64,000 nt of DNA from Gemmatimonadales bacterium. GTDB taxonomy: Bacteria > Gemmatimonadota > Gemmatimonadetes > Gemmatimonadales > GWC2-71-9. Shown here in pieces: positions 391 through 57,201 of this stretch. A program made the translations under genes and the position numbers. The notes under the pieces are model-generated. The model made no database searches, was not told where the DNA came from, and worked only from the letters and a program-made list of their open reading frames with translations. The stretch lies in assembly GCA_035538515.1 (NCBI GenBank), contig DATLKF010000032.1, forward strand, positions 36,073 through 100,072. Direction: 5' to 3'. The first letter of the stretch is position 1. Each line of letters opens with the position of its first letter.

Positions 391-495
391 GTCGTCAGTC
401 GTCAGTCATCAGGTATCAGTTGCACGAATGCGCGGGCCGGGTTTCCTTTCTCCTCGCGAAACCCAACTGATGACTGAGCACTGACGACCGATCAC
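391..495. repeat. Palindromic heptad-array element, family D
   Basis: Left arm 391-421 is gtcgtca gtcgtca gtcatca ggtatca gtt. Right arm 465-495 (aactgatgactgagcactgacgaccgatcac) is its imperfect reverse complement. An inner hairpin pairs gggtttc 439-445 with gaaaccc 458-464. The element fills the spacer between the receptor stop (387-389) and the etfB ATG (499). Confidence 0.8.
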
Positions 496-4447: not shown

Positions 4448-4481
4448 GTTGCACAGAAGCATCGGTTGCACAGAAGCATCG
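4448..4481 (+). repeat. Perfect tandem duplication, 2 x 17 bp (GTTGCACAGAAGCATCG)
   Basis: Read directly from the sequence. It lies 38 nt upstream of the ATG at 4519. Confidence 0.9.
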
Positions 4482-4518
4482 GCGGAAGTGGCCTCGCGGG
4501 ATCGGACTCTGGGGCGAT

Positions 4519-5208
4519 ATGACCTGGTACAGGGTGGTCATCGCGCTGCTGGCGCTCGGCTTGGCGTTCGACGTGTACCTGCGGGTTCGTGCGCGTCGGC
4601 GCGAGAGCGCGTCGTCGGGCGACGAGCTCGCGGGAATCGAGGACTGGCGGAGCTTTTACGAGCGCGCGGAGGCCGAGTTCGAGCGGGCCCGCCGCTACGC
4701 TCATCCGTTCAGCCTGTGCTATTTCGACCTCGACGACTTTACGGAAGTGAGCGATCGCTTCAGTCCCGACGTCGCGGAAGCGATGCTCCGCTCGCTGGCT
4801 GAGTCCGCCCGCGCGTCAATCCGCTCGAGCGACGTGATCGGGCGCTTGGGGAGCGACGTCTTTGCCCTGCTGCTTCCTGAGGCCGGCTCGGAGGCGGCCG
4901 ACGCCGTGATCCGCAAGCTGCAACAGGCGCTGGGAGACATGTCGCTGCAAACCGGGCTGCCCCTCACGATCACCGGCGCGGTGGTGACATGCCAGCCGCC
5001 CACGGAAAGCCTTGAGGCGGTGATCGGCGCGGCCGACCGCTTGCTGTCCGGCGCGAGGAATGCCGGCAAGGGCACGCTGTGGAGTGAGGTGATCGCCCCG
5101 CAACCACTCGAGGGCTTCGAGCCGGCGCAGCTGCGGCGGGCCCGTCGGTTGCCACCGGCATTCGACGTGCCGATGCCCCCGATGCAGCGGCGACAAGGGG
5201 GCGGCTGA
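4519..5208 (+). CDS. Membrane-anchored degenerate GGDEF-domain protein
   Basis: The N-terminal TM helix is MTWYRVVIALLALGLAFDVYL. The GGDEF fold pattern FSLCYFDLDDFTEVSD...VIGRLGSDVFALLLPE has GSDVF in place of GGDEF. Confidence 0.7.
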   Translation: MTWYRVVIALLALGLAFDVYLRVRARRRESASSGDELAGIEDWRSFYERAEAEFERARRYAHPFSLCYFDLDDFTEVSDRFSPDVAEAMLRSLAESARASIRSSDVIGRLGSDVFALLLPEAGSEAADAVIRKLQQALGDMSLQTGLPLTITGAVVTCQPPTESLEAVIGAADRLLSGARNAGKGTLWSEVIAPQPLEGFEPAQLRRARRLPPAFDVPMPPMQRRQGGG

Positions 5209-10171: not shown

Positions 10172-10239
10172 GGGGTTCGGGGTTCGGGTCTCGGGGCTTG
10201 GGATGCACCCCCAGCCCCGAGCCCCGAGCCCCGAGCCCC
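10172..10239. repeat. Palindromic heptad-array element, family C (GGGG[C/T]TC units)
   Basis: Left arm 10172-10202 is ggggttc ggggttc gggtctc ggggctt ggg. The loop is atgca. Right arm 10208-10239 is cccccag ccccgag ccccgag ccccgag cccc. It sits in the 91-bp spacer between the PTPS-like stop and the fdhD ATG. Confidence 0.85.
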
Positions 10240-11676: not shown

Positions 11677-12367
11677 GGCTGCCTCGTCCTTGGAGCGCCT
11701 GGAGCCCGACGTTCACGAGCAGCGCGAGCATCAGCAGGATCAGGCCGAGCGCGAGCGCCAAGCCGAAGTCGCCCTGACTGGTGTACAGGGTGACCGCGGT
11801 CGTGAGCGTGCGGGTCTGGCCGCGGATGTTGCCGCCCACCGTCATCGCGGATCCGACCTCGGCCACGACGTGGCCAAAGGCAGTCGTGATCACGGCGGCG
11901 AGGGCAAAGCGCGCCTCCCGCGCCACGGTCCACGCTGTGCGCCAGCGCCCGGCGCCCAGCGTTTCGGCCGTGCGGCGGATGCGCGGGTCCACCCCCTGGA
12001 CAGCCGCGGCCGCGAGCGCCGCCGCGATCGGAAACGCGAGCAGCACGTCGCCCACAACTATCGCTTGCCAGGTATACAGCCACCCGATCGCGCCCAGCGG
12101 CCCACGGCGGGAGAGCAGGCCGTATAGCAGCAGGCCCACCACGACGGTGGGGAAAGCGAGCGCGGTGTTGACCACGGTGAGGGCGGCGCGGCGGCCCCAA
12201 AACGGCTTCGTGGCCAGCACAAAGCCCGTCGGGATGCCGAGGCCACAGGCGACGATCGTGGAGAGCACACCGATCTTGAGCGTCAGGCGGGCGATGCCGT
12301 ACACCTCGGCGTCGCCCGAGACCAGCAGCGCGAACGCTCGCCGGAATCCCTCCGCTAGAAAGTCCAC
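11669..12367 (-). CDS. ABC transporter permease (TupB/ModB-like)
   Basis: It has a multi-TM profile and an EAA-type loop TAETLGAGRWRTAWTVAREARFAL. It overlaps the ATPase start by 8 nt. GTG 12367 was chosen because the longer ORF would overlap the OMP gene. Confidence 0.7.
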   Translation of the reverse strand: MDFLAEGFRRAFALLVSGDAEVYGIARLTLKIGVLSTIVACGLGIPTGFVLATKPFWGRRAALTVVNTALAFPTVVVGLLLYGLLSRRGPLGAIGWLYTWQAIVVGDVLLAFPIAAALAAAAVQGVDPRIRRTAETLGAGRWRTAWTVAREARFALAAVITTAFGHVVAEVGSAMTVGGNIRGQTRTLTTAVTLYTSQGDFGLALALGLILLMLALLVNVGLQALQGRGSRA

Positions 12368-13089
12368 GCCACGCCGATCGTGGCCCAGCGGTGCGAGGTC
12401 CACTCGGTGATCGCCGCGGTGGGCGCCAGCACGCTGCTTCCCCCGCCTGACGGCGGCACCTTGTAAGAGAGCGGGTAGTGCAGCCGCCACAGCACCAGCC
12501 GGAAATCGCCGCGGATCGAGAGGCGCCGCGCGGGATACCAGCGCACGCCGGCGTTAGGCGAAAGGGTGAACTTGGTGCCGAACGTGTAGCCGCTCGAATC
12601 CTGGGCCAACGTGTTCGCGAACGCGACGCCGAGCGCGCCGCCGATGTAAGGCGCGAAGCCGCGCCACGTCTTGCGGCCCGTCAACACGAGCTGCAGGCCG
12701 GCGTCGGCGAGCACCACCCCGTTGTCGTACGGACCGCTGGTGCGCGCGGAATCCTTCTTGGGATCCACGACGAAGCTTTGGGTCCGCCCGTACGCGAGGC
12801 CGAGTGACGCGCCGATGGCCCCGAATTGGGCGTCGTAGCGGATCCCCGCGGTCGCACCATCGGCGAGGCCGACGCCCAGGCTCCCCCGGCCGCCGCTCAG
12901 GTATCCGAACGCCAGCACGCCGACGGCTCCGCGCCGGATATCGCGATAGGGGGAGTGGCCGGGATCGTAGCCCACTTGAGCGCCGGACGGTTGGACGGTG
13001 GGACCGACGGACAGTAGCACCGTTGCACCGAGTGCGATCCAGCCACGGGTCCACCGTCCGACCGTCCGACCGTCCGACCGTCCGTCCAT
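12355..13089 (-). CDS. Small outer-membrane beta-barrel protein (hypothetical)
   Basis: The predicted signal peptide is MDGRSDGRTVGRWTRGWIALGATVLLSVGPTVQPSGA/QV. It has an alternating amphipathic strand pattern and ends ...ATIGVAWTF. The ATG overlaps the gpmI stop (ATGA). Confidence 0.6.
   Translation of the reverse strand: MDGRSDGRTVGRWTRGWIALGATVLLSVGPTVQPSGAQVGYDPGHSPYRDIRRGAVGVLAFGYLSGGRGSLGVGLADGATAGIRYDAQFGAIGASLGLAYGRTQSFVVDPKKDSARTSGPYDNGVVLADAGLQLVLTGRKTWRGFAPYIGGALGVAFANTLAQDSSGYTFGTKFTLSPNAGVRWYPARRLSIRGDFRLVLWRLHYPLSYKVPPSGGGSSVLAPTAAITEWTSHRWATIGVAWTF
12983..13087. repeat. Palindromic octad-array element, family B ([A/G]GTCGGAC units)
   Basis: Arm 12983-13015 is ccggacggt tggacggt gggaccga cggacagt. 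Arm 13054-13087 is (ccgtccga)x3 ccgtccgtcc, its imperfect reverse complement. A 38-nt spacer separates them. The element lies inside the first ~35 codons of the OMP gene. Confidence 0.8.
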
Positions 13090-14657
13090 CAGTCCGTCTC
13101 CCTGAGATCTCGCCCCGTCATCTCCGGCGGCGGCTCCACACCGAGCAATCGGAGCACCGTGGGCCCCACGTCGCACAGCGCGCCGCCGTGGCGCAGCGGG
13201 CCGCGCACGTCGTCCCCAACGAGGCAGAACGGTACCGGATTGGTGGTGTGGGCCGTGTGAGGGCCGTCCGTCGTGGGATCGATCATCAGCTCGCAATTAC
13301 CGTGGTCCGCCGTGACGAGCAGGGTGGCGCCGCGCCGCTCGGCGCTGCGTAAGACGCGCTCCAGGCAGCGATCCACCGTTTCCACCGCTTGGATGGCGGC
13401 GCGTAGTACCCCGGAGTGGCCGACCATGTCCCCGTTGGCGTAGTTGCACAGGATGAAGTCGTGGTGCCCCGCCTCGATCGCGCGGCACAGCACGTCGGTC
13501 ACGCCCGGGGCGCTCATTTCCGGCATGAGATCGTAGGTCGCGACCTTTTGAGACGGCACCAGCTGCCGCTCCTCGCCCGGGTACGGCGTCTCGACCCCAC
13601 CGTTGAAGAAGTAGGTGACGTGGGCGTATTTCTCCGTCTCGGCGGTCCGGAACATCGTCTTGCCCCGCTCCGACAGCACCTGCGCGACGATCTGCGAGAG
13701 CACCATCGGGCCGAACGCCATCGGGAATGGGAAGGTCGCGTCGTACTGTGTCATCGTCACGAGATCGACGGCCGGCCGAGCCCCGGTGTCGAAACCGTCG
13801 AATCCTTCGAGCGCGAGCGCGCGCACGATCTGGCGCATGCGGTCGGCTCGGAAGTTGACGCAGAAGATACCGTCTCCATCCCGGATGCGCGGCGTGCCGG
13901 TGATCACGCGCGGCTTCACGAACTCGTCCGTCTCGCCGGCCTCGTACGCGCGACGGACGGCGGTAATCGGGTTCGGCGCGGGCTCGCCCACGCCGTGTAC
14001 CATCGCGTCGTACGCGATCTTGGTGCGCTCCCAGCGCTTGTCGCGGTCCATGGCATAGTAGCGACCGACGACGGTGGAAATGCATATGGGGGCTCGGGGA
14101 TCGGGGCTCGGGGCTCGGGCCCCGCCACCCCCGATCCCCTCTACCAGCTCCTGCATGAACGCCAGCCCCGACTGCGGCGCCGTGTCGCGCCCGTCGAGCC
14201 ACGCGTGGATCGCGACCGGCAGGTCGTGCTCGCGGCCGAGCTCGACGGCGGCCACGAGGTGCTGATCGAGCGCGTGCACGCCGCCCGTGCCGATCAGCCC
14301 GCACAGGTGGAGCGTGCCGCCGCGCCGCTTCACGTCGGCGCACAACTGGACTAAGGGCGGAAGGCGGAAGAACTCGCCCGACTGGATTGCCTGCGAGATG
14401 CGCACCATGTCCTGCGGCACGACGCGACCCGCGCCCAGGTTCAGGTGTCCCACCTCGCTGTTGCCGATCTGTCCTTGGGGGAGTCCCACGGCGAGACCCG
14501 ACGCGTCGAGCAGTGTGCGCGGTGCTTTGGCCCACAGACGATGCCAGGTAGGTGTCGCGCCGAGCTCGACGGCGTTGCCCTCCCGGCCGGGGCGGAAGCC
14601 CCAGCCGTCGAGCACGATCAGGACGACCGGGGTGCGCGGCCCATTCTGCTTTGCCAT
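13089..14657 (-). CDS. gpmI: 2,3-bisphosphoglycerate-independent phosphoglycerate mutase
   Basis: It carries VVLIVLDGWG, GNSEVGHLNLGAGR, GRYYAMDRDKRWER and TADHGN. The protein is 522 aa. Confidence 0.92.
   Translation of the reverse strand: MAKQNGPRTPVVLIVLDGWGFRPGREGNAVELGATPTWHRLWAKAPRTLLDASGLAVGLPQGQIGNSEVGHLNLGAGRVVPQDMVRISQAIQSGEFFRLPPLVQLCADVKRRGGTLHLCGLIGTGGVHALDQHLVAAVELGREHDLPVAIHAWLDGRDTAPQSGLAFMQELVEGIGGGGARAPSPDPRAPICISTVVGRYYAMDRDKRWERTKIAYDAMVHGVGEPAPNPITAVRRAYEAGETDEFVKPRVITGTPRIRDGDGIFCVNFRADRMRQIVRALALEGFDGFDTGARPAVDLVTMTQYDATFPFPMAFGPMVLSQIVAQVLSERGKTMFRTAETEKYAHVTYFFNGGVETPYPGEERQLVPSQKVATYDLMPEMSAPGVTDVLCRAIEAGHHDFILCNYANGDMVGHSGVLRAAIQAVETVDRCLERVLRSAERRGATLLVTADHGNCELMIDPTTDGPHTAHTTNPVPFCLVGDDVRGPLRHGGALCDVGPTVLRLLGVEPPPEMTGRDLRETD
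14088..14139. repeat. Family C heptad tract inside gpmI
   Basis: gggggctc ggggatc ggggctc ggggctc ggg occupies 14088-14119. It is followed by ccccgatcccc (14129-14139), which is complementary to ggggatcgggg (14096-14106). It is read in frame as GGGGARAPSPDPRAP. Confidence 0.8.
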
Positions 14658-31929: not shown

Positions 31930-32015
31930 AACGCGGAACGCGGAAGTCGGAATGCGGAACAGGCGGCTCGAGGTCCGCTCGAATGTTCCGCGTTCGGCAT
32001 TCCGCGTTCCGACTT
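31930..32015. repeat. Palindromic heptad-array element, family A copy 1
   Basis: The left arm is cgcggaa cgcggaa gtcggaa tgcggaa ca (31932-31961). The spacer is 22 nt. The right arm is tg ttccgcg ttcggca ttccgcg ttccgac tt (31984-32015). About 24/30 arm positions are complementary by eye. It starts 1 nt after the MATE TGA and ends at the next gene start. Confidence 0.85.
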
Positions 32016-35850: not shown

Positions 35851-36763
35851 CCGACAGTCGGAAGGTCGGACAGTCGGACGAGAAGGCCAAACGGTCGCGG
35901 GCGAAAGCTTGCTTGTCCGCTATGTCAACTTCGTCAAGCTGCCGCACACAGTATTCGCGTTACCGTTCGCATTGCTCGGTGTGATCGTTGCTTCGCGTGA
36001 GGCGGCGGTGACGTGGCGGATGCTCGGGCTCGTCGTTCTCGCGTTCACGTGTGCCCGGTTCGTTGCGCTCGGGTTCAACCGCATCGCGGATCGCGAGCTC
36101 GACGCGCGGAACCCGCGCACCAGCGGCCGTGAGCTCCCCAGCGGGCGCCTCACCCTGACGCAGGCCTGGGTCGCGGTGGCCGCGGCGGCGGCGCTGTTTC
36201 TGGTGAGCGCCTGGGCGCTGAACCCGCTGTGCTTCGCCCTCGCCCCCATCGCGCTGCTCTTCGTCGCGGCATACAGCTACACCAAGCGGTTCACGTCCTG
36301 GTCGCATCTGTGGCTCGGCCTCGCGGACGGCATCGCGACGCCGGCAGGATATCTCGCGGTGACCGGCCGCTGGGGCGATCCCTGGTGGCTGCTTCCTGTG
36401 GGCGCGCTCGCCGTCACGTTCTGGGTTGGTGGCTTCGACGTGTTCTACGCGCTCCCCGACGAGACCTTCGACCGTGCCGAGCGGCTCGCGTCGCTCGTGG
36501 TGCGGCTGGGGCAGGCGCGGGCCATCCGGGTCGCGAAGCTGCTGCACGGGGTCGCGCTGGTCGCGCTTGTCGTATTCGGGATCGGGGCGGGTTTGGGTGT
36601 GGCCTATTACGCCGGCGTGGCGGCCGGCGCCGCGCTCATCATCTGGGAGCACCAGCTGGTCCGGCCGGGAGACCTGCGCCGGCTGAATGCGGCGTTCTTC
36701 ACCGCGAACGGAATCGTGAGCGTGGTCGTGTTCCTGGGAGCGTTGGTGGATAGAGTGATATGA
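35840..36763 (+). CDS. ubiA: UbiA-family aromatic prenyltransferase (4-hydroxybenzoate / dihydroxynaphthoate type)
   Basis: It carries VKLPHTVFALPFALLG, the Asp-rich motif NRIADRELD and 8-9 TM helices. TTG 35840 gives the longest ORF; TTG 35909 is an alternative that would leave the family B tract noncoding. Confidence 0.85.
   Translation: MSSDRQSEGRTVGREGQTVAGESLLVRYVNFVKLPHTVFALPFALLGVIVASREAAVTWRMLGLVVLAFTCARFVALGFNRIADRELDARNPRTSGRELPSGRLTLTQAWVAVAAAAALFLVSAWALNPLCFALAPIALLFVAAYSYTKRFTSWSHLWLGLADGIATPAGYLAVTGRWGDPWWLLPVGALAVTFWVGGFDVFYALPDETFDRAERLASLVVRLGQARAIRVAKLLHGVALVALVVFGIGAGLGVAYYAGVAAGAALIIWEHQLVRPGDLRRLNAAFFTANGIVSVVVFLGALVDRVI
35851..35880. repeat. Family B octad tract (single arm)
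   Basis: ccgac agtcggaa ggtcggac agtcggac g lies directly after the ubiD TGA (35848-35850). No convincing inverted partner was seen nearby. Confidence 0.7.
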
Positions 36764-36851
36764 AACGCGGAACGCGGAAGTCGGAACGCGGAGCAGACGA
36801 GCGAGTGCCGGTGGCGCCTGTTCCGCGTTCCCCGTTCCGCGTTCCGCGTTC
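36763..36851. repeat. Palindromic heptad-array element, family A copy 2
   Basis: The left arm is cgcggaa cgcggaa gtcggaa cgcggag ca (36766-36795). The spacer is 22 nt and unrelated to that of copy 1. The right arm is tg ttccgcg ttccccg ttccgcg ttccgcg ttc (36819-36851). About 26/30 positions are complementary. It abuts the ubiA TGA. Confidence 0.85.
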
Positions 36852-44904: not shown

Positions 44905-44957
44905 GTGATGCTCCTGCCGAAAGATAGAACCCGCACTACGCTAACGGATCTGTGGTG

Positions 44958-45015
44958 TTTCGCGCGATCAGTAGTTTCGCGCCATCAGTAGGGGCGCAGC
45001 ATGCTGCGCCCCTAC
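44958..45015. repeat. 2 x 17-bp direct repeat followed by a 28-bp perfect palindrome
   Basis: The repeat is TTTCGCGCGATCAGTAG (44958-44974) / TTTCGCGCCATCAGTAG (44975-44991). The palindrome gtaggggcgcagcatgctgcgcccctac spans 44988-45015. Confidence 0.85.
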
Positions 45016-47444: not shown

Positions 47445-48865
47445 ATGACCGGCACCTTAATGGTCGGTGTCTCGGGGATCCGCGGCATCGTAGGCAAGGA
47501 CCTGACCGATGAAATCGTCGCCCGCTACGCCCGGGCGTTCGGCCGGTGGGCCAAGGGAAGGGCGGGGGGGGCGCGCAATCCGCTCGTGGTGGTCGGCCGC
47601 GACGCGCGGGAATCCGGAGCGGCGTTCGAGCGGGCCGTGACCGACGCGTTGCGGTCCGTGCGGTGCGACGTCGTGCAGCTAGGCGTCGTCCCCACCCCCA
47701 CCGTGCAGCTAGCGGTCGAGCATCACCACGCAGGCGGCGGGATCGCCATCACGGCCAGCCACAACCCCATCGAGTGGAACGCCCTGAAATTCATCGGGCC
47801 GGACGGAATTTTCCTCGACGGCAAGGACGGAAGGCGGGTGCTGGAGCTGGTGGGAGAGGACGGGGGAGGACGGGGAAGGACGGGGGAGGCTAGGACCGAT
47901 GACCAGGCGATCGCGCGGCACCTCGCGGCCGTGCTGGAGCTTCCGGCGGTGGACGTCGCGGGGGTCCGGGCCCGCAAGCTCACCGTGGCGCTCGACACGG
48001 TGCGGGGAGCGGGAGGCCCGGTGATGCGGGAGCTCCTGGAGCGGCTTGGCTGCCGCGTGGAGGGCATCAACCTCGAGACCGATGGCCAGTTTCCCCGGCC
48101 CCCGGAGCCGGTGCCCGAGAACCTGGGTGACCTGGCCGCCCTCGTGCAGCGGACCGGTGCGGTGTTCGGCATCGCGGTCGATCCGGACGTGGATCGCCTG
48201 GCGATCGTGGACGACCGGGGGATGCCGATTGGGGAGGACTACACGCTTGCCTTCGCCGTTCGAGCGGTCTTCGGTGTCGGAGCGTCGGACAGTCGGACGG
48301 TCGGACTGCAAAGCGGTGGACTGTCCGACCGTCCGACCGACCGAAGAACCGTCGTCTGCAACCTCTCGACCAGCCTCGTCGTCGAAGACGCCGCCCGTGA
48401 GTTCGGCGCCGAGGTCGTCCGGACGCCCGTCGGCGAAGTGCACGTCGCCCGCAAGATCCTCGCACTCGGGGCGCCGATCGGGGGGGAGGGGAACGGGGGC
48501 GTCATGTATCCCGCGCTGCACGTCGGTCGGGATGCCCCGGTCGCGGCGGCGTTGCTGCTGACGCTGCTCGCCCGGTCGGGAACGCGAGTGAGCGAGCTCG
48601 TAGCCGCGGCCCCGCGCTATGTGATCGTCAAAGCAAAGTTGGAACGGGGAACGCGGAACGCGGAACGGGGAATGGAAGAGATCTATGCCGCTTTGCGTCG
48701 GCGGTTCCCCGAGGCGAGCGTCGACACGCAGGACGGGTTGCGGCTCGCCTGGTCGGACCGCTGGCTGCACGTGCGGCCGTCCAACACCGAGCCGATCATC
48801 CGGCTGATCGCCGAGGCGCCGATCCGCGCCGATGCGGAACGACTGATCGAGGAGGGGCGCCGCCC

Positions 48866-50707: not shown

Positions 50708-50827
50708 GAACGCGGAAGTCGGAACGCGGAATGCGGAACGGCCGGTCGGCCGTCGATCGGCAACGAAAGCCCACGGGCCAGAAACGCGAAGGCTCTGTTC
50801 CGCGTTCCGACTTGCGCGTTCCGCGTT
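50708..50827. repeat. Palindromic heptad-array element, family A copy 3
   Basis: The left arm is cgcggaa gtcggaa cgcggaa tgcggaa cgg (50711-50741). The spacer is 53 nt. The right arm is tg ttccgcg ttccgac ttgcgcg ttccgcg tt (50796-50827). It abuts the glmS TGA and is followed by an SD gggagggg and the dtd GTG. Confidence 0.85.
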
Positions 50828-55040: not shown

Positions 55041-57086
55041 ATGCGCGTCGCGCTTACCGCTTGCGCCGTCGGGATCCTCGTGTGTCCCGAGTCCGCGCGG
55101 GCGCAGGCGTGGAACTCGGAGGGCGCGCTGAGCCTGGCGCGCCGGGCGATCCTGCGGCGCAGCGGCGCCGTGGCCGACAGCTCGCTGCACGATTACAAGG
55201 CCCAGGCCCATGGGTTCCTCTTCTTTCTGGGCGCCTTCGGTCAGGGGCTTGCCGACCCTCCTCGCCTCGTCAAGGCCGATCAGCTGGAGCTGGAAGTGTA
55301 CTGGAAGGCGCCCGCCAGCAGCAAGCAGCGGGTCGTCGGCTGGCGCGACCAGGCGCTGTTGCCCACCGACATCAACTATCATCGCGACCACCTCGGCATC
55401 ATCCAAAACAACTTCGGGGCCGCCATCCGACTGGGCGAGGGCGACGAAGTGCGCGACGTGCCCCACCCCCTCGCGCCCGCCGGTCCGGCGCTGTACGACT
55501 TCGCCCTGGGAGATACGACGACGATCGTGTTCCCCGGGCGCGAAGTGCGGGTCGTGGCGCTGCGCGTCCGACCGAAGGATTTCGGCCTCCCTCGCATCGT
55601 CGGCACCTTGTACGTGGACGCCGAGAGCGCCGACCTCGTGCGCATGGCCTTCAATTTCACGCCGCGGTCCTACCTCGATCCCGAGCTCGAGGACGTAAGC
55701 ATCGTGCTCGACAATGCGCTCGAGGAGCAGCGCTACTGGCTCCCGTACCGCCAGGAGATCGAGATCCGGCGCCGTGCCACCTGGCTGGATGTGCCGGCGC
55801 GCGGGATCATCCGCGCACGCTGGGAGATCGACGGCTACGCGTTGAACCTGGGGCTCGCGAACAGCTGGTTCGCGGGAGAAGAAATCACGTTCCTTCCGAA
55901 GGCGGAGCGCGATTCGTTTCCGTGGAAGGAGCCGCTGGCGGCCGCCCTGCAGGACGTGGCCGAGCCCGTGCGGCAGAACGACCTGGCGCGAGTGCGGGCG
56001 CAGGTGGAGGAGATCGCCGGCCGGCGCGCTCTCACGGGACTCAAGGCCCGGCGCCTCGGCGTCCGCGGCGTCTCAGACCTGCTGCACGCCAACCGTGTCG
56101 AGGGGCTGACGCCGGGCGCGGGGATCGTGCTGCGCGGCGGGGGCGAGCGCCGCGAGCTGCGGGCACGAGGGAGCTACGGCTTCGGCGACCGGCGCCCCAA
56201 GGGCGCGCTCAGCGCAGTCGACCGCCAGGGACGGGGTGCGCTCGAGGCCGGCGTGTATCGCGAGGTGCGCGACGTCGGGGACGCGCCGGTCATCGCCCCG
56301 CTCCTGAACTCGTTTTCGTCCCAGGAATTCGGGCTCGACTACGGGGACTATTACTTGGCGGACGGTGGGCGCCTGACCTACCGCCACGGGGTGGGCGCGC
56401 GCAGCGAATGGCGCGTGACGGTGGGCCGCGAGTCCATCGGGTCGCTTCCGATCGTCGCCGTCCCGGCGAACGGCCGCTTCCGGCCCAATCCCCCTCTCGG
56501 CGGCACCGGCGTAGACCTCGTGCAGCTGGGGCTCGAGCGCAAGAGCGAGGGCTTCGCCGTGCTGCGCGACCTGCACTACGAGCTGTTGCTCGAGGGAGGG
56601 CGTCGGGACGGGGGCGTGGACTTCCTGAGGCTCTCGACCGTCGGACACGTGTTGGTTCCAGTCGGCGCGACGCGAGTGCTGGTCCGCGCTCAGGGCGGCG
56701 TGGCGAGCGCGAACTTGCCGGCGCACCGCGCGTTCGTGCTCGGCGGGCGCGGCACGCTCCTGGGCGATGAGTTTCGCCGCTGGGGCGGCGCCCGCATGGC
56801 GCTGGTCCACGTCGAATGGCGCGTGCCGGTCCCGTTCGTCTCGCTCGGGATCGGTCCGTACGCGCGCACGCCGCGCACCCTCACGGTCGCGCCCTATGCG
56901 GCGCTCGGCGGGACCGGCCGACCGCTCGCTGATACACCCTGGGCCGCCACACCAGGTGTCCGGGTCACGGTTGGGCTCGGGTTCGAGTGGCTGGGTGTGT
57001 TCCGATGGGACGTGGGGTTCGGCACGACCACGCATCGCGTGGCGGTGGCGTTCGACGTGGCGCGCGATTTTTGGTCGATACTGTAA
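55041..57086 (+). CDS. Large outer-membrane protein, hypothetical (possibly surface-antigen/Omp85-like barrel)
   Basis: The signal peptide is MRVALTACAVGILVCPESARAQA. The beta-rich C-terminal third reads ...VTVGLGFEWLGVFRWDVGF... The family was not recognised with confidence. Confidence 0.5.
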   Translation: MRVALTACAVGILVCPESARAQAWNSEGALSLARRAILRRSGAVADSSLHDYKAQAHGFLFFLGAFGQGLADPPRLVKADQLELEVYWKAPASSKQRVVGWRDQALLPTDINYHRDHLGIIQNNFGAAIRLGEGDEVRDVPHPLAPAGPALYDFALGDTTTIVFPGREVRVVALRVRPKDFGLPRIVGTLYVDAESADLVRMAFNFTPRSYLDPELEDVSIVLDNALEEQRYWLPYRQEIEIRRRATWLDVPARGIIRARWEIDGYALNLGLANSWFAGEEITFLPKAERDSFPWKEPLAAALQDVAEPVRQNDLARVRAQVEEIAGRRALTGLKARRLGVRGVSDLLHANRVEGLTPGAGIVLRGGGERRELRARGSYGFGDRRPKGALSAVDRQGRGALEAGVYREVRDVGDAPVIAPLLNSFSSQEFGLDYGDYYLADGGRLTYRHGVGARSEWRVTVGRESIGSLPIVAVPANGRFRPNPPLGGTGVDLVQLGLERKSEGFAVLRDLHYELLLEGGRRDGGVDFLRLSTVGHVLVPVGATRVLVRAQGGVASANLPAHRAFVLGGRGTLLGDEFRRWGGARMALVHVEWRVPVPFVSLGIGPYARTPRTLTVAPYAALGGTGRPLADTPWAATPGVRVTVGLGFEWLGVFRWDVGFGTTTHRVAVAFDVARDFWSIL

Positions 57087-57090
57087 GGCA

Positions 57091-57201
57091 GGTTGGGGAG
57101 GCGAGATACGAGATGCGAGATGCGGGATGGGTGGTAAGGGGCCGCAATCACGCTCTCCTATCCCGGCTCCAACCTCCCCTAACCTCCCCAACCTCCCTAC
57201 C
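57091..57201. repeat. Composite palindromic repeat element, family F
   Basis: The outer perfect 11-bp stem pairs ggttggggagg (57091-57101) with cctccccaacc (57183-57193). Inside are four heptads cgagata cgagatg cgagatg cgggatg (57102-57129) and the C-rich decamers aacctcccct aacctcccc aacctccct (57171-57198). It fills the spacer before the gspE-REC gene. Confidence 0.8.

Follow-up and report, generated by a model that had tools for sequence, protein, structure and literature searches.

A palindromic tandem-repeat element spans the start codon and the predicted signal peptide of an outer-membrane protein gene in Gemmatimonadales

A stretch of 64,000 nt from a soil Gemmatimonadales bacterium (GCA_035538515.1, contig DATLKF010000032.1, positions 36,073-100,072), hereafter the window, contains an open reading frame (ORF) of 244 amino acids for an outer-membrane protein (OMP) that directly follows gpmI on the minus strand. 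An inverted repeat with arms of tandem 8-nt units, at window positions 12984-13087 on the same strand, spans codons 1-37 of this ORF. The explanation that we consider probable is that a hairpin-forming palindromic repeat cassette was co-opted as a signal peptide and takes up exactly the space from the gpmI stop codon to the conserved N-terminus of the mature OMP. As judged by comparison with orthologous loci, the window copy is one allele of a hypervariable cassette that is kept as a hairpin over a whole clade. About 100 nt would be constrained twice, as a long nucleic-acid stem and as the code for a functional signal peptide, a natural case of dual coding that extends over some 46 species with differing sequences.

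The repeat element and the predicted signal peptide

The OMP ORF, at 12355-13089 on the minus strand, is present as a preliminary description of this DNA had given it, and translates as MDGRSDGRTVGRWTRGWIALGATVLLSVGPTVQPSGA followed by QVGYDPGHSPY…; the repeat that had been placed over its start codon and signal peptide is the inverted repeat described here. At 13049-13084 Tandem Repeats Finder detects (GTCCGACC) x4.6 (96% matches), and at 12985-13004 the complement of this unit, x2.5. The best inverted repeat has 23-nt arms (12984-13006 and 13046-13068) that are 87% complementary and lie 39 nt apart, and a looser pairing of 50 nt covers 12977-13091. With up to 2 mismatches allowed, the two-unit pattern of this repeat, termed family B, has 12 matches in the window against 3.6 expected, a number reached in 0 of 100 shuffles. 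These matches are confined to 12985-13087, 35860-35881 and 48287-48342. The second of the three tracts, at 35853-35880, had been counted among the family B tracts and is a single arm rather than a palindrome. The peptide pattern S-D-x-R-T-V-G, noted earlier in all three tracts, does recur, but three 8-nt units make 8 codons and therefore give the same cyclic octapeptide from all three frames, so that its recurrence is automatic.

The upstream gene is identified as gpmI by Pfam Metalloenzyme and iPGM_N matches, and its C-terminus …R E T D is followed by TGA. Its overlap with the OMP start, first described as ATGA, is TGATG with one shared base (A, 13089), and relatives show both forms. The last codons of gpmI (…RDLRETD and stop) include the sequence AGGGAG, conserved among relatives, in which GGGAG is a putative Shine-Dalgarno motif. 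Prediction of the structure of the mRNA 5' region, suggested in the preliminary description, gave a stable fold for the element with a minimum free energy of -77.9 kcal/mol; the z-score is only -2.8 against dinucleotide shuffles, because the composition is GC-rich and the shuffles also fold well. A search of Rfam gave no family at its gathering score for this element, the sub-threshold matches being generic miRNA-precursor hairpin models only (21-29 bits against the 71-137 needed). No terminator-like or promoter-like site was found in 12300-13700.

Orthologous loci were taken from one scan of species-representative Gemmatimonadales genomes, which yielded 80 loci with DNA, 76 of them analysed for junction features; all relatives compared are metagenome-assembled genomes (MAGs). 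Signal-peptide features (charge, hydropathy and the residues at positions -1 and -3) were scored by hand. The n-region of the window copy, MDGRSDGRTVGRWTRG, contains four Arg and two Asp, giving a net charge of +2 against a median of +3 in the 46 hairpin alleles. The best 10-residue Kyte-Doolittle window in WIALGATVLLSV scores 2.18, against medians of 2.46 in hairpin alleles and 2.56 in outgroups, and the loop, or spacer, is hydrophobic in every hairpin allele. The cleavage context in the window is S-G-A/Q, with no lipobox Cys, and position -1 is Ala in 67 of the 76 loci, Gly in 5 and Ser in 4. The window copy therefore has the features of a Sec-type signal peptide, namely a charged n-region, an h-region of at least 10 residues and small residues at -3 and -1. 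It is well supported, from the sequence, that the G-rich arm would encode the Arg/Gly-rich n-region, the spacer the hydrophobic core and the C-rich arm the Pro/Ser/Thr c-region ending in SGA/Q. The sole other in-frame start within the element, a GTG at codon 24, would leave 14 residues without a charged n-region. Only the element can supply a signal peptide, because no downstream in-frame start leaves a usable one.

By its predicted structure, the 244-aa product is an 8-stranded beta-barrel OMP. The AlphaFold model has eight strands and a mean pLDDT of 71, with the N-terminal 50 residues at low confidence, and its Foldseek matches in the PDB are OmpA, NspA, OmpW, OprG, Ail and OmpX (E 1e-6 to 1e-4). 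The C-terminus is …AWTF, and the Pfam OMP_b-brl match is weak (E 0.001, below cut-off). As a beta-barrel of the outer membrane the protein would have to be exported, and a signal peptide would therefore be needed. Hundreds of homologues are found in Gemmatimonadetes MAGs, and the protein is conserved at 58-85% identity. The window itself comes from a Gemmatimonadales MAG, as shown by its phosphoglucosamine mutase, for which NCBI has an entry with 100% identity. The exact 244-aa OMP has no entry in a collection of 5.8 billion proteins, in which the best match is 83% identical, and an exact-sequence look-up of the 522-aa gpmI product returned no record. The source annotation may differ in its starts around the gpmI-OMP junction, and gene callers may mis-start or miss repeat-coded genes of this kind.

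Orthologous loci and exchange of the cassette

The gene order is widely conserved. gpmI (…GRDLRETD and stop) lies directly 5' of the OMP gene, overlapping or abutting it, in nearly all loci, including distant ones at 38-44% OMP identity. A TGATG or ATGA overlap of stop and start is found in most of the 76 loci, including most outgroups with gpmI upstream, and most hairpin-bearing orthologues have an in-frame ATG 0-7 nt from the gpmI stop. As distant orthologues also possess it, the tight junction is ancestral and older than the hairpin. Loci L009 and L038 have a different upstream end: the long ORF there stops 37 nt before the OMP start with the C-terminus …HARYRAAA, and the gpmI translation is apparently frame-shifted, which could reflect a frameshift or an assembly error in these MAGs.

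The mature N-terminus QVG(H/Y)(D/E)P(G/S/A)xSPY is invariant across orthologues. In about 46-49 loci it is preceded by a signal peptide of 30-41 aa (median 36), the coding region of which folds into 26-49 nested pairs at -35 to -86 kcal/mol, with a stem that runs from the ATG to the Ala/Gln codons. Outgroup and distant orthologues have ordinary signal peptides with a median of 25 aa and no long stem. In the outgroups L053-L079 the signal-peptide coding region is less stable than synonymous recodings (median z +1.6); that of the hairpin clade exceeds its recodings in stability (median z -1.5). Comparison of orthologue N-termini, which the preliminary description had proposed, thus finds the same mature start everywhere and a hairpin-coded signal peptide in about 46 species. 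The SGA/QV cleavage position given there agrees with the A/QVG(H/Y)(D/E)P junction, kept in the 76 loci, cleavage itself being predicted. The same description had named two observations that would speak against it, namely an element-free signal peptide in orthologues together with an untranslated copy here, or a real start further downstream with another signal sequence. No usable downstream start was found, and QVG(H/Y)(D/E)P follows the 3' arm directly in hairpin loci and the ordinary signal peptides in outgroups.

The OMP frame is open in all 46 hairpin loci, against stops in 33 and 22 of the 46 (72% and 48%) in the other two frames. In alleles of TTAGAC type, the 5'-arm unit with the would-be in-frame TAG reads TGG, and the 3'-arm unit with the would-be in-frame TAA or TAG reads TAT or TAC, or CAA, GAC and CAC once each; every one of these stop-avoiding changes costs one stem mismatch. 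In three loci (L010, L012 and L023) the 5' arm has been lost and a new ATG gives a 20-aa signal peptide, MRVVALLWLGVVASWNAVSA, that consists of the loop and the 3' arm, and L017 has a similarly shortened peptide, MTPRRIAALICLGVVASWNVATA. Because L010, L012 and L023 have lost the 5' arm, loop and 3' arm seem to suffice as a signal peptide and the stem to be dispensable. From these comparisons we infer that the cassette is translated and gives the whole of a Sec-type signal peptide, cleaved at A/Q. The claim that the element supplies the start-codon region and the entire signal peptide thus holds up against the orthologues. Its interpretation as a repeat exapted for export gains from the open frame, the avoided in-frame stops, the hydrophobic loop, the Ala at -1 and the OMP fold. 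Translational coupling through the hairpin, offered earlier as the alternative, is plausible and compatible with the export signal.

The arms at the OMP site are tandem 8-mers in all hairpin loci, while the unit varies by species (see the table); pairing, reading frame and hydrophobic loop are all maintained despite the differing arm sequences. To assess covariation, a stem of 36 pairs was named by hand on a plain MAFFT alignment of 45 sequences. In this stem 75.2% of cells are paired against 61.6% in shuffles, with 0 of 500 shuffles as high, and covariation scores 0.351 against 0.142. If the partner is moved by 1-3 columns, pairing falls to 29-44%, and in 25 of the 36 stem pairs both partners have changed. 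When each sequence is given a register parameter of its own, pairing scores sum to 1150 (394-581 in shifted registers), and most stem columns then contain 4-6 pair types. RNAalifold, run on the MAFFT alignment, returns 9 consensus pairs only, since the alignment places the tandem arms in differing registers.

Codon choice is tuned to stem pairing. A stem-specific score was adopted in place of whole-region folding energy, which is insensitive here since GC-rich shuffles and recodings also fold strongly. The window copy scores 20.5 against 10.0 +/- 2.2 for 200 synonymous recodings, none of which reaches the native value. Over the 46 loci, native sequences exceed their synonymous recodings by a median z of about 5, and 36 loci have a native score that 0 of 200 recodings attain. 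The signal-peptide regions of outgroups are at or below expectation (stem-specific z about -0.6).

A neighbour-joining tree built from 517 columns of gpmI unites the hairpin-bearing species in a single clade, within which losses or decay are nested (L053-55, L010/L023, L017 and L025/L040). Unit types are mixed across this tree rather than clade-specific, with the same ones reappearing in different subclades. Change along an allele lineage is concerted over both arms and all their units, for example from ACGCTAC…GTAGCGT to ACGCCAC…GTGGCGT. L029 and L030 share about 95% identity over the end of gpmI and over the mature OMP, but their cassettes cannot be aligned, with sharp borders that lie a few bases 5' of the ATG and at the Ala codon; the pairs L015/L018 and L011/L008 repeat this pattern of an unalignable cassette between similar flanks. 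Since flanks so nearly identical enclose unalignable cassettes, the cassette is replaced as a unit.

Related palindromes in the window and in other genomes

As judged from the sequences, the gpmI-OMP element belongs to a dispersed, lineage-wide set of tandem-unit palindromes that have 7- or 8-nt units and fall into several families; family A consists, in the window, of GGAACGC arrays. The six palindromes at other gene junctions start 0-6 nt past the upstream stop codon and fill most of the spacer, and the next gene begins beyond the element. Copies are also found in coding sequence: the phosphoglucosamine-mutase-like gene holds three in-frame repeat tracts, and gpmI itself contains a C-rich arm. 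The coordinates of all of these, together with the parts of the gpmI-OMP locus and the units found at the OMP site, are collected in the table.

Table. Features of the gpmI-OMP locus, other repeat tracts of the window, and arm units at the OMP site by locus
Feature	Position	Strand	Remarks
Shine-Dalgarno-like GGGAG (in AGGGAG)	13098..13102	-	8 nt 5' of the OMP ATG, within the final codons of gpmI (…L R E T D and stop), outside the stem
gpmI stop codon TGA	13089..13091	-	its final A, at 13089, also opens the OMP ATG (overlap TGATG)
OMP start codon ATG	13087..13089	-	at the hairpin base
5' G-rich arm	13046..13086	-	about 4.6 tandem GGACGGTC units, starting at the second codon; codes for Arg-rich n-region DGRSDGRTVGRWTR
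Spacer/loop, inner part also able to pair	13007..13045	-	codes for hydrophobic core GWIALGATVLLSV
3' C-rich arm, complementary units	12984..13006	-	codes for c-region GPTVQPSG
Predicted signal-peptidase I site, Ala37 (GCT)/Gln38 (CAA)	12976..12981	-	mature start QVGYDPGHSPY
Remaining mature OMP and stop codon	12355..12975	-	predicted 8-stranded beta-barrel, end …IGVAWTF
C-rich (GGGGCTC)n/(GAGCCCC)n arm inside gpmI	14089-14119	-	in frame, read GGGGARAPSPDPRAP
7-mer-arm palindrome at gene junction	398-488		
7-mer-arm palindrome at gene junction	10172-10239		
7-mer-arm palindrome at gene junction	31934-32011		
7-mer-arm palindrome at gene junction	36764-36851		
7-mer-arm palindrome at gene junction	50708-50827		
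Less regular palindrome	57086-57198		16-nt arms, no 7-mer period
Family B single arm (CGACAGTC GGAAGGTC GGACAGTC GGAC)	35853..35880	+	directly 3' of a ubiD-like stop, before ubiA
(GGGGGAGGAC) x3.8 tract in phosphoglucosamine-mutase-like gene	47852-47889	+	read GEDGGGRGRTGE
Family B full palindrome in phosphoglucosamine-mutase-like gene	48276..48344	+	in frame, codes for GASDSRTVGLQSGGLSDRPTDRR
Family A single arm in phosphoglucosamine-mutase-like gene	48641-48672	+	read ERGTRNAERG, common to most orthologues
Unit GGACGGTC			window, L001, L022, L050
Unit GGCGGTCA / GGGCGGAC			L002-4, L035, L039, L042, L062
Unit AGACGGTT			L016, L018, L020, L034, L036, L044-L052
Unit GGAACGAT / GGAACGAC			L021, L026, L029, L049, L059
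Unit GGAAGGTT			L011, L015, L028, L033
Unit CGACGCTA / CGACGCCA			L005-L009, L013, L014, L019, L024, L027, L030, L038

Occupancy of the coding-sequence sites varies among genomes. Many relatives (L006, L008, L013, L014, L019, L026, L027, L029, L033 and L049) have a full (GGGGCTC)n palindrome in gpmI (~4900-5000), read GLGARGSGLGGGGVRAPSPDPRAP, and others, including the closest relative L001, lack the insert and have a short native loop (…LLAQYGGRA…). The site in the mutase gene is either empty or occupied by a family B, family A or GGAACGAC-type palindrome of -61 to -85 kcal/mol. At the orthologous ubiA-ubiX and glmS-dtd junctions (L201-L203) a hairpin is present in every genome checked, at times with another unit family. 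At least 120 contigs from soil metagenomes (L081-L200) contain a 22-nt family B array, at many loci, and one among those listed is the gpmI-OMP junction.

Every full palindrome of the window has its G-rich arm 5' and its C-rich arm 3', on both strands by symmetry. Among the family B matches with a partner arm in the metagenome contigs listed, about 25 are G-first and 1 is C-first, the mirror class being nearly absent. The G-rich-first orientation was considered as a sign of a role at the RNA level and rejected, since a palindrome reads identically on both strands and the property is intrinsic.

Origin of the cassette, alternatives and known systems

The element is best regarded, from its sequence and its relatives, as a translated hypervariable cassette that resembles Rickettsia palindromic elements (RPE) and REP repeats. 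In the explanation preferred here, it would have arisen once at the base of the clade, been lost a few times and been swapped wholesale between close relatives, each replacement version retaining the stem and the n-h-c layout of the signal peptide. Palindromes of this clade typically start 0-6 nt after stop codons in tight operon junctions and occasionally lie in frame inside genes. gpmI and the OMP gene would already have abutted, and because the ancestral overlap of stop and start left no spacer, a post-stop hairpin could fit only in the 5' end of the OMP ORF. A cleaved signal peptide is probably the part of a protein with the loosest demand on sequence, and so may be able to absorb a hairpin if the n-h-c order is kept. 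The polarity of the palindrome would suit this order, with G-rich codons giving Arg and Gly and C-rich codons giving Pro, Ser and Thr.

The stem itself, if the intergenic sibling hairpins are taken as the model, would probably be a stable 3' stem-loop of the gpmI cistron, acting as an exonuclease barrier, a processing site or a termination site. Initiation at the OMP start would probably depend on ribosomes terminating at gpmI, since the stem buries the ATG and about 100 nt and leaves the Shine-Dalgarno-like motif free. Such coupling is the weakest part of the explanation, because the ratio of G.U to A.C mismatches is only 28:14, no T-run is present and the stem has been lost several times.

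Several observations weigh against the co-opted hairpin or against a function of its stem. Of 76 orthologues, 37 have Leu at position -3, a residue that signal peptidase I tolerates although it is less typical there. The OMP-site unit of each relative almost never recurs within +/-6 kb of the site, in a sample too small to speak for genome-wide dispersal. The whole-region folding energy of the window copy is weakly exceptional, both against shuffles (z -2.8) and against synonymous recodings (z -1.4). The stem is dispensable and lost in several lineages, and no T-run lies 3' of it, the 3' arm being followed by GGCGCTCAAGTGGGC, so that the GC stem with T-run of an intrinsic terminator is not seen. 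The count of 28 G.U against 14 A.C on the sense strand is low under symmetric scoring, and comes from sequences that are not independent. A larger census of mismatches based on the energy model (219 G.U against 21 A.C) was discarded as biased, since that model treats G.U as paired.

A dedicated, locus-specific regulatory RNA structure under selection, acting through gpmI coupling, slowed early elongation for targeting or an RNase III switch, is an alternative that we hold to be rather unlikely; the likeness to repeats would then be secondary and the signal-peptide coding fitted around the structure. It would explain why, in about 46 species, the stem is fixed to the start codon and to the cleavage site and compensatory changes abound, why codon choice is tuned to pairing, and why G.U exceeds A.C on the sense strand. 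The opposite departures of hairpin clade and outgroups from synonymous expectation (z -1.5 and +1.6), and the position of the ATG within the stem with the Shine-Dalgarno-like motif left free, are also in keeping with it. However, the same unit families and architecture stand at unrelated junctions and inside the gpmI and phosphoglucosamine mutase genes, and whole-cassette swaps and recurring unit types are more in line with a dispersed or exchangeable element than with compensatory evolution by gradual steps. The gene persists in at least four lineages that have lost the stem, and the stop/start overlap, hence the potential for coupling, is older than the hairpin.

It is likewise doubtful that the stem is functionless, as selfish or mutationally self-maintaining DNA that persists only at sites where it is harmless, namely a cleaved signal peptide, surface loops and positions after stop codons. 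The arms would then stay complementary through slippage within them, through arm-to-arm template switching or gene conversion and through recurrent cassette replacement, rather than through selection on RNA structure. Concerted change of all units in both arms (CGACGCTA against CGACGCCA alleles), the switching of unit types between sister species, the presence/absence variation at the gpmI and phosphoglucosamine mutase sites and the loss of stems without loss of the gene all fit such an origin, for which in-frame Rickettsia palindromic elements are a precedent (PMC10969869). It is less easily reconciled with the hairpins that hold the same junctions in every genome examined despite changes of unit, which looks like site-specific retention of a structure, and tolerance alone poorly explains the strict placement 0-6 nt after stops. 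Neither a mobilising enzyme nor a target-site duplication turned up, no search having been aimed at either.

That the element is untranslated intergenic DNA, with a downstream OMP start or a pseudogene and an accidentally open frame, is highly improbable: GGACGGTC arrays are indeed stop-free in all six frames by construction, the other full junction palindromes of the window all lie upstream of the next gene's start and the exact product is missing from the protein collection, but no downstream start gives this conserved OMP a usable signal peptide, alleles with TAG or TAA units avoid them in frame, the other frames often contain stops, and the constant hydrophobic loop and conserved A/Q junction already contradict it.

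A broader proposal, that these palindromes represent an undescribed type of tandem-unit hairpin cassette at fixed post-stop sites that is exchanged whole between genomes and loci, is put forward tentatively and with more doubt than confidence. If true, the exchange would imply a recombination or transposition machinery that recognises hairpins, like RAYT-REPIN or integron attC-IntI, and the signal peptide would be continually rewritten by a mobile hairpin within the constraints of stem pairing and n-h-c layout. Integron attC sites, which have variable sequence and conserved hairpins 3' of ORFs, were themselves dropped as a candidate, since housekeeping genes in conserved synteny lie on either side and GTTRRRY core sites are absent. 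The alleles may also serve as a comparative series for the freedom of signal-peptide sequences and for the tolerance or use of 5' mRNA structure in secretory genes.

The closest likeness in behaviour is to the RPE, which are dispersed, translated and in frame in unrelated housekeeping genes (Ogata et al. 2000, 2002, via PMC10969869). The likeness lies in the in-frame inserts of gpmI and the phosphoglucosamine mutase gene, present in some orthologues only, and in a dispersed multi-copy family, with three family B sites in 64 kb. The RPE are about 100-150 bp long with a family consensus, whereas here the arms are built of tandem 7- or 8-nt units that are replaced between species, most copies lie directly after stop codons rather than inside genes, and the phylum is Gemmatimonadota. 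Given the other phylum and the tandem-unit arms, sequence homology to RPE families is unlikely. In the literature searched, no report was found of an RPE that supplies a whole signal peptide, and nothing on such tandem-unit palindromes in Gemmatimonadota or on any repeat element coding for a complete signal peptide. The palindromes would thus be a lineage-wide class, undescribed as far as found, in an uncultured and abundant soil phylum, and their post-stop placement, unit switching at fixed sites and invasion of housekeeping enzymes may extend RPE-type selfish DNA beyond Rickettsia.

With the REP, BIME and REPIN sequences of Proteobacteria, which are accompanied by RAYT transposases, the elements share short, abundant hairpin repeats in operon spacers, often 3' of a gene, and the occurrence of both paired and single arms. 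In work on malE-malF, REPs reportedly stabilise upstream mRNA against 3' exonucleases, a role that the stem here would probably share. A REP unit is an imperfect palindrome of 20-40 nt headed by a conserved GT(A/G)G; the elements of the window are set apart from REPs by the lack of such a head, by GGACGGTC and GGAACGC tandem arms that are not self-complementary and by being tolerated in coding sequence; no RAYT gene turned up within the 64-kb window, where no search was aimed at RAYT. The mycobacterial interspersed repetitive units (MIRU) of Supply et al. 1997 are said to be intercistronic operon repeats with frames that overlap the flanking stop and start codons, suggesting translational coupling. 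The stop/start overlap at an intercistronic repeat is common to both, but MIRUs are direct repeats of 40-100 bp with separate small ORFs, whereas the repeat here is inverted and continuous with the OMP frame, and is thus not of MIRU type. Cyanobacterial short tandemly repeated repetitive (STRR) sequences are dispersed tandem heptanucleotide arrays, to which the family A GGAACGC arrays of the window are comparable; the repeats here differ in forming inverted pairs with long stems, in including 8-mers and in their fixed post-stop positions.

Long, near-perfect stems that are co-transcribed with genes are also found in Correia and ERIC-type MITEs, and cleavage of Correia stems by RNase III alters mRNA levels (PMC10969869). 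A stem of 25-35 bp such as that at the OMP site is, by analogy, a plausible RNase III substrate. Unlike those elements, no transposon-type terminal inverted repeats, target-site duplication, promoter or IHF site are seen here. Two other repeats in the window are unlike the tandem-arm palindromes in kind: GTTTCGCGCCATCAGTA x2.1, a tandem repeat of 17 nt at 44957-44991, which lies beside a perfect 16-nt palindrome (GTAGGGGCGCAGCATG/CATGCTGCGCCCCTAC) at 44988-45015, and a perfect 17-nt tandem repeat at 4448-4482.

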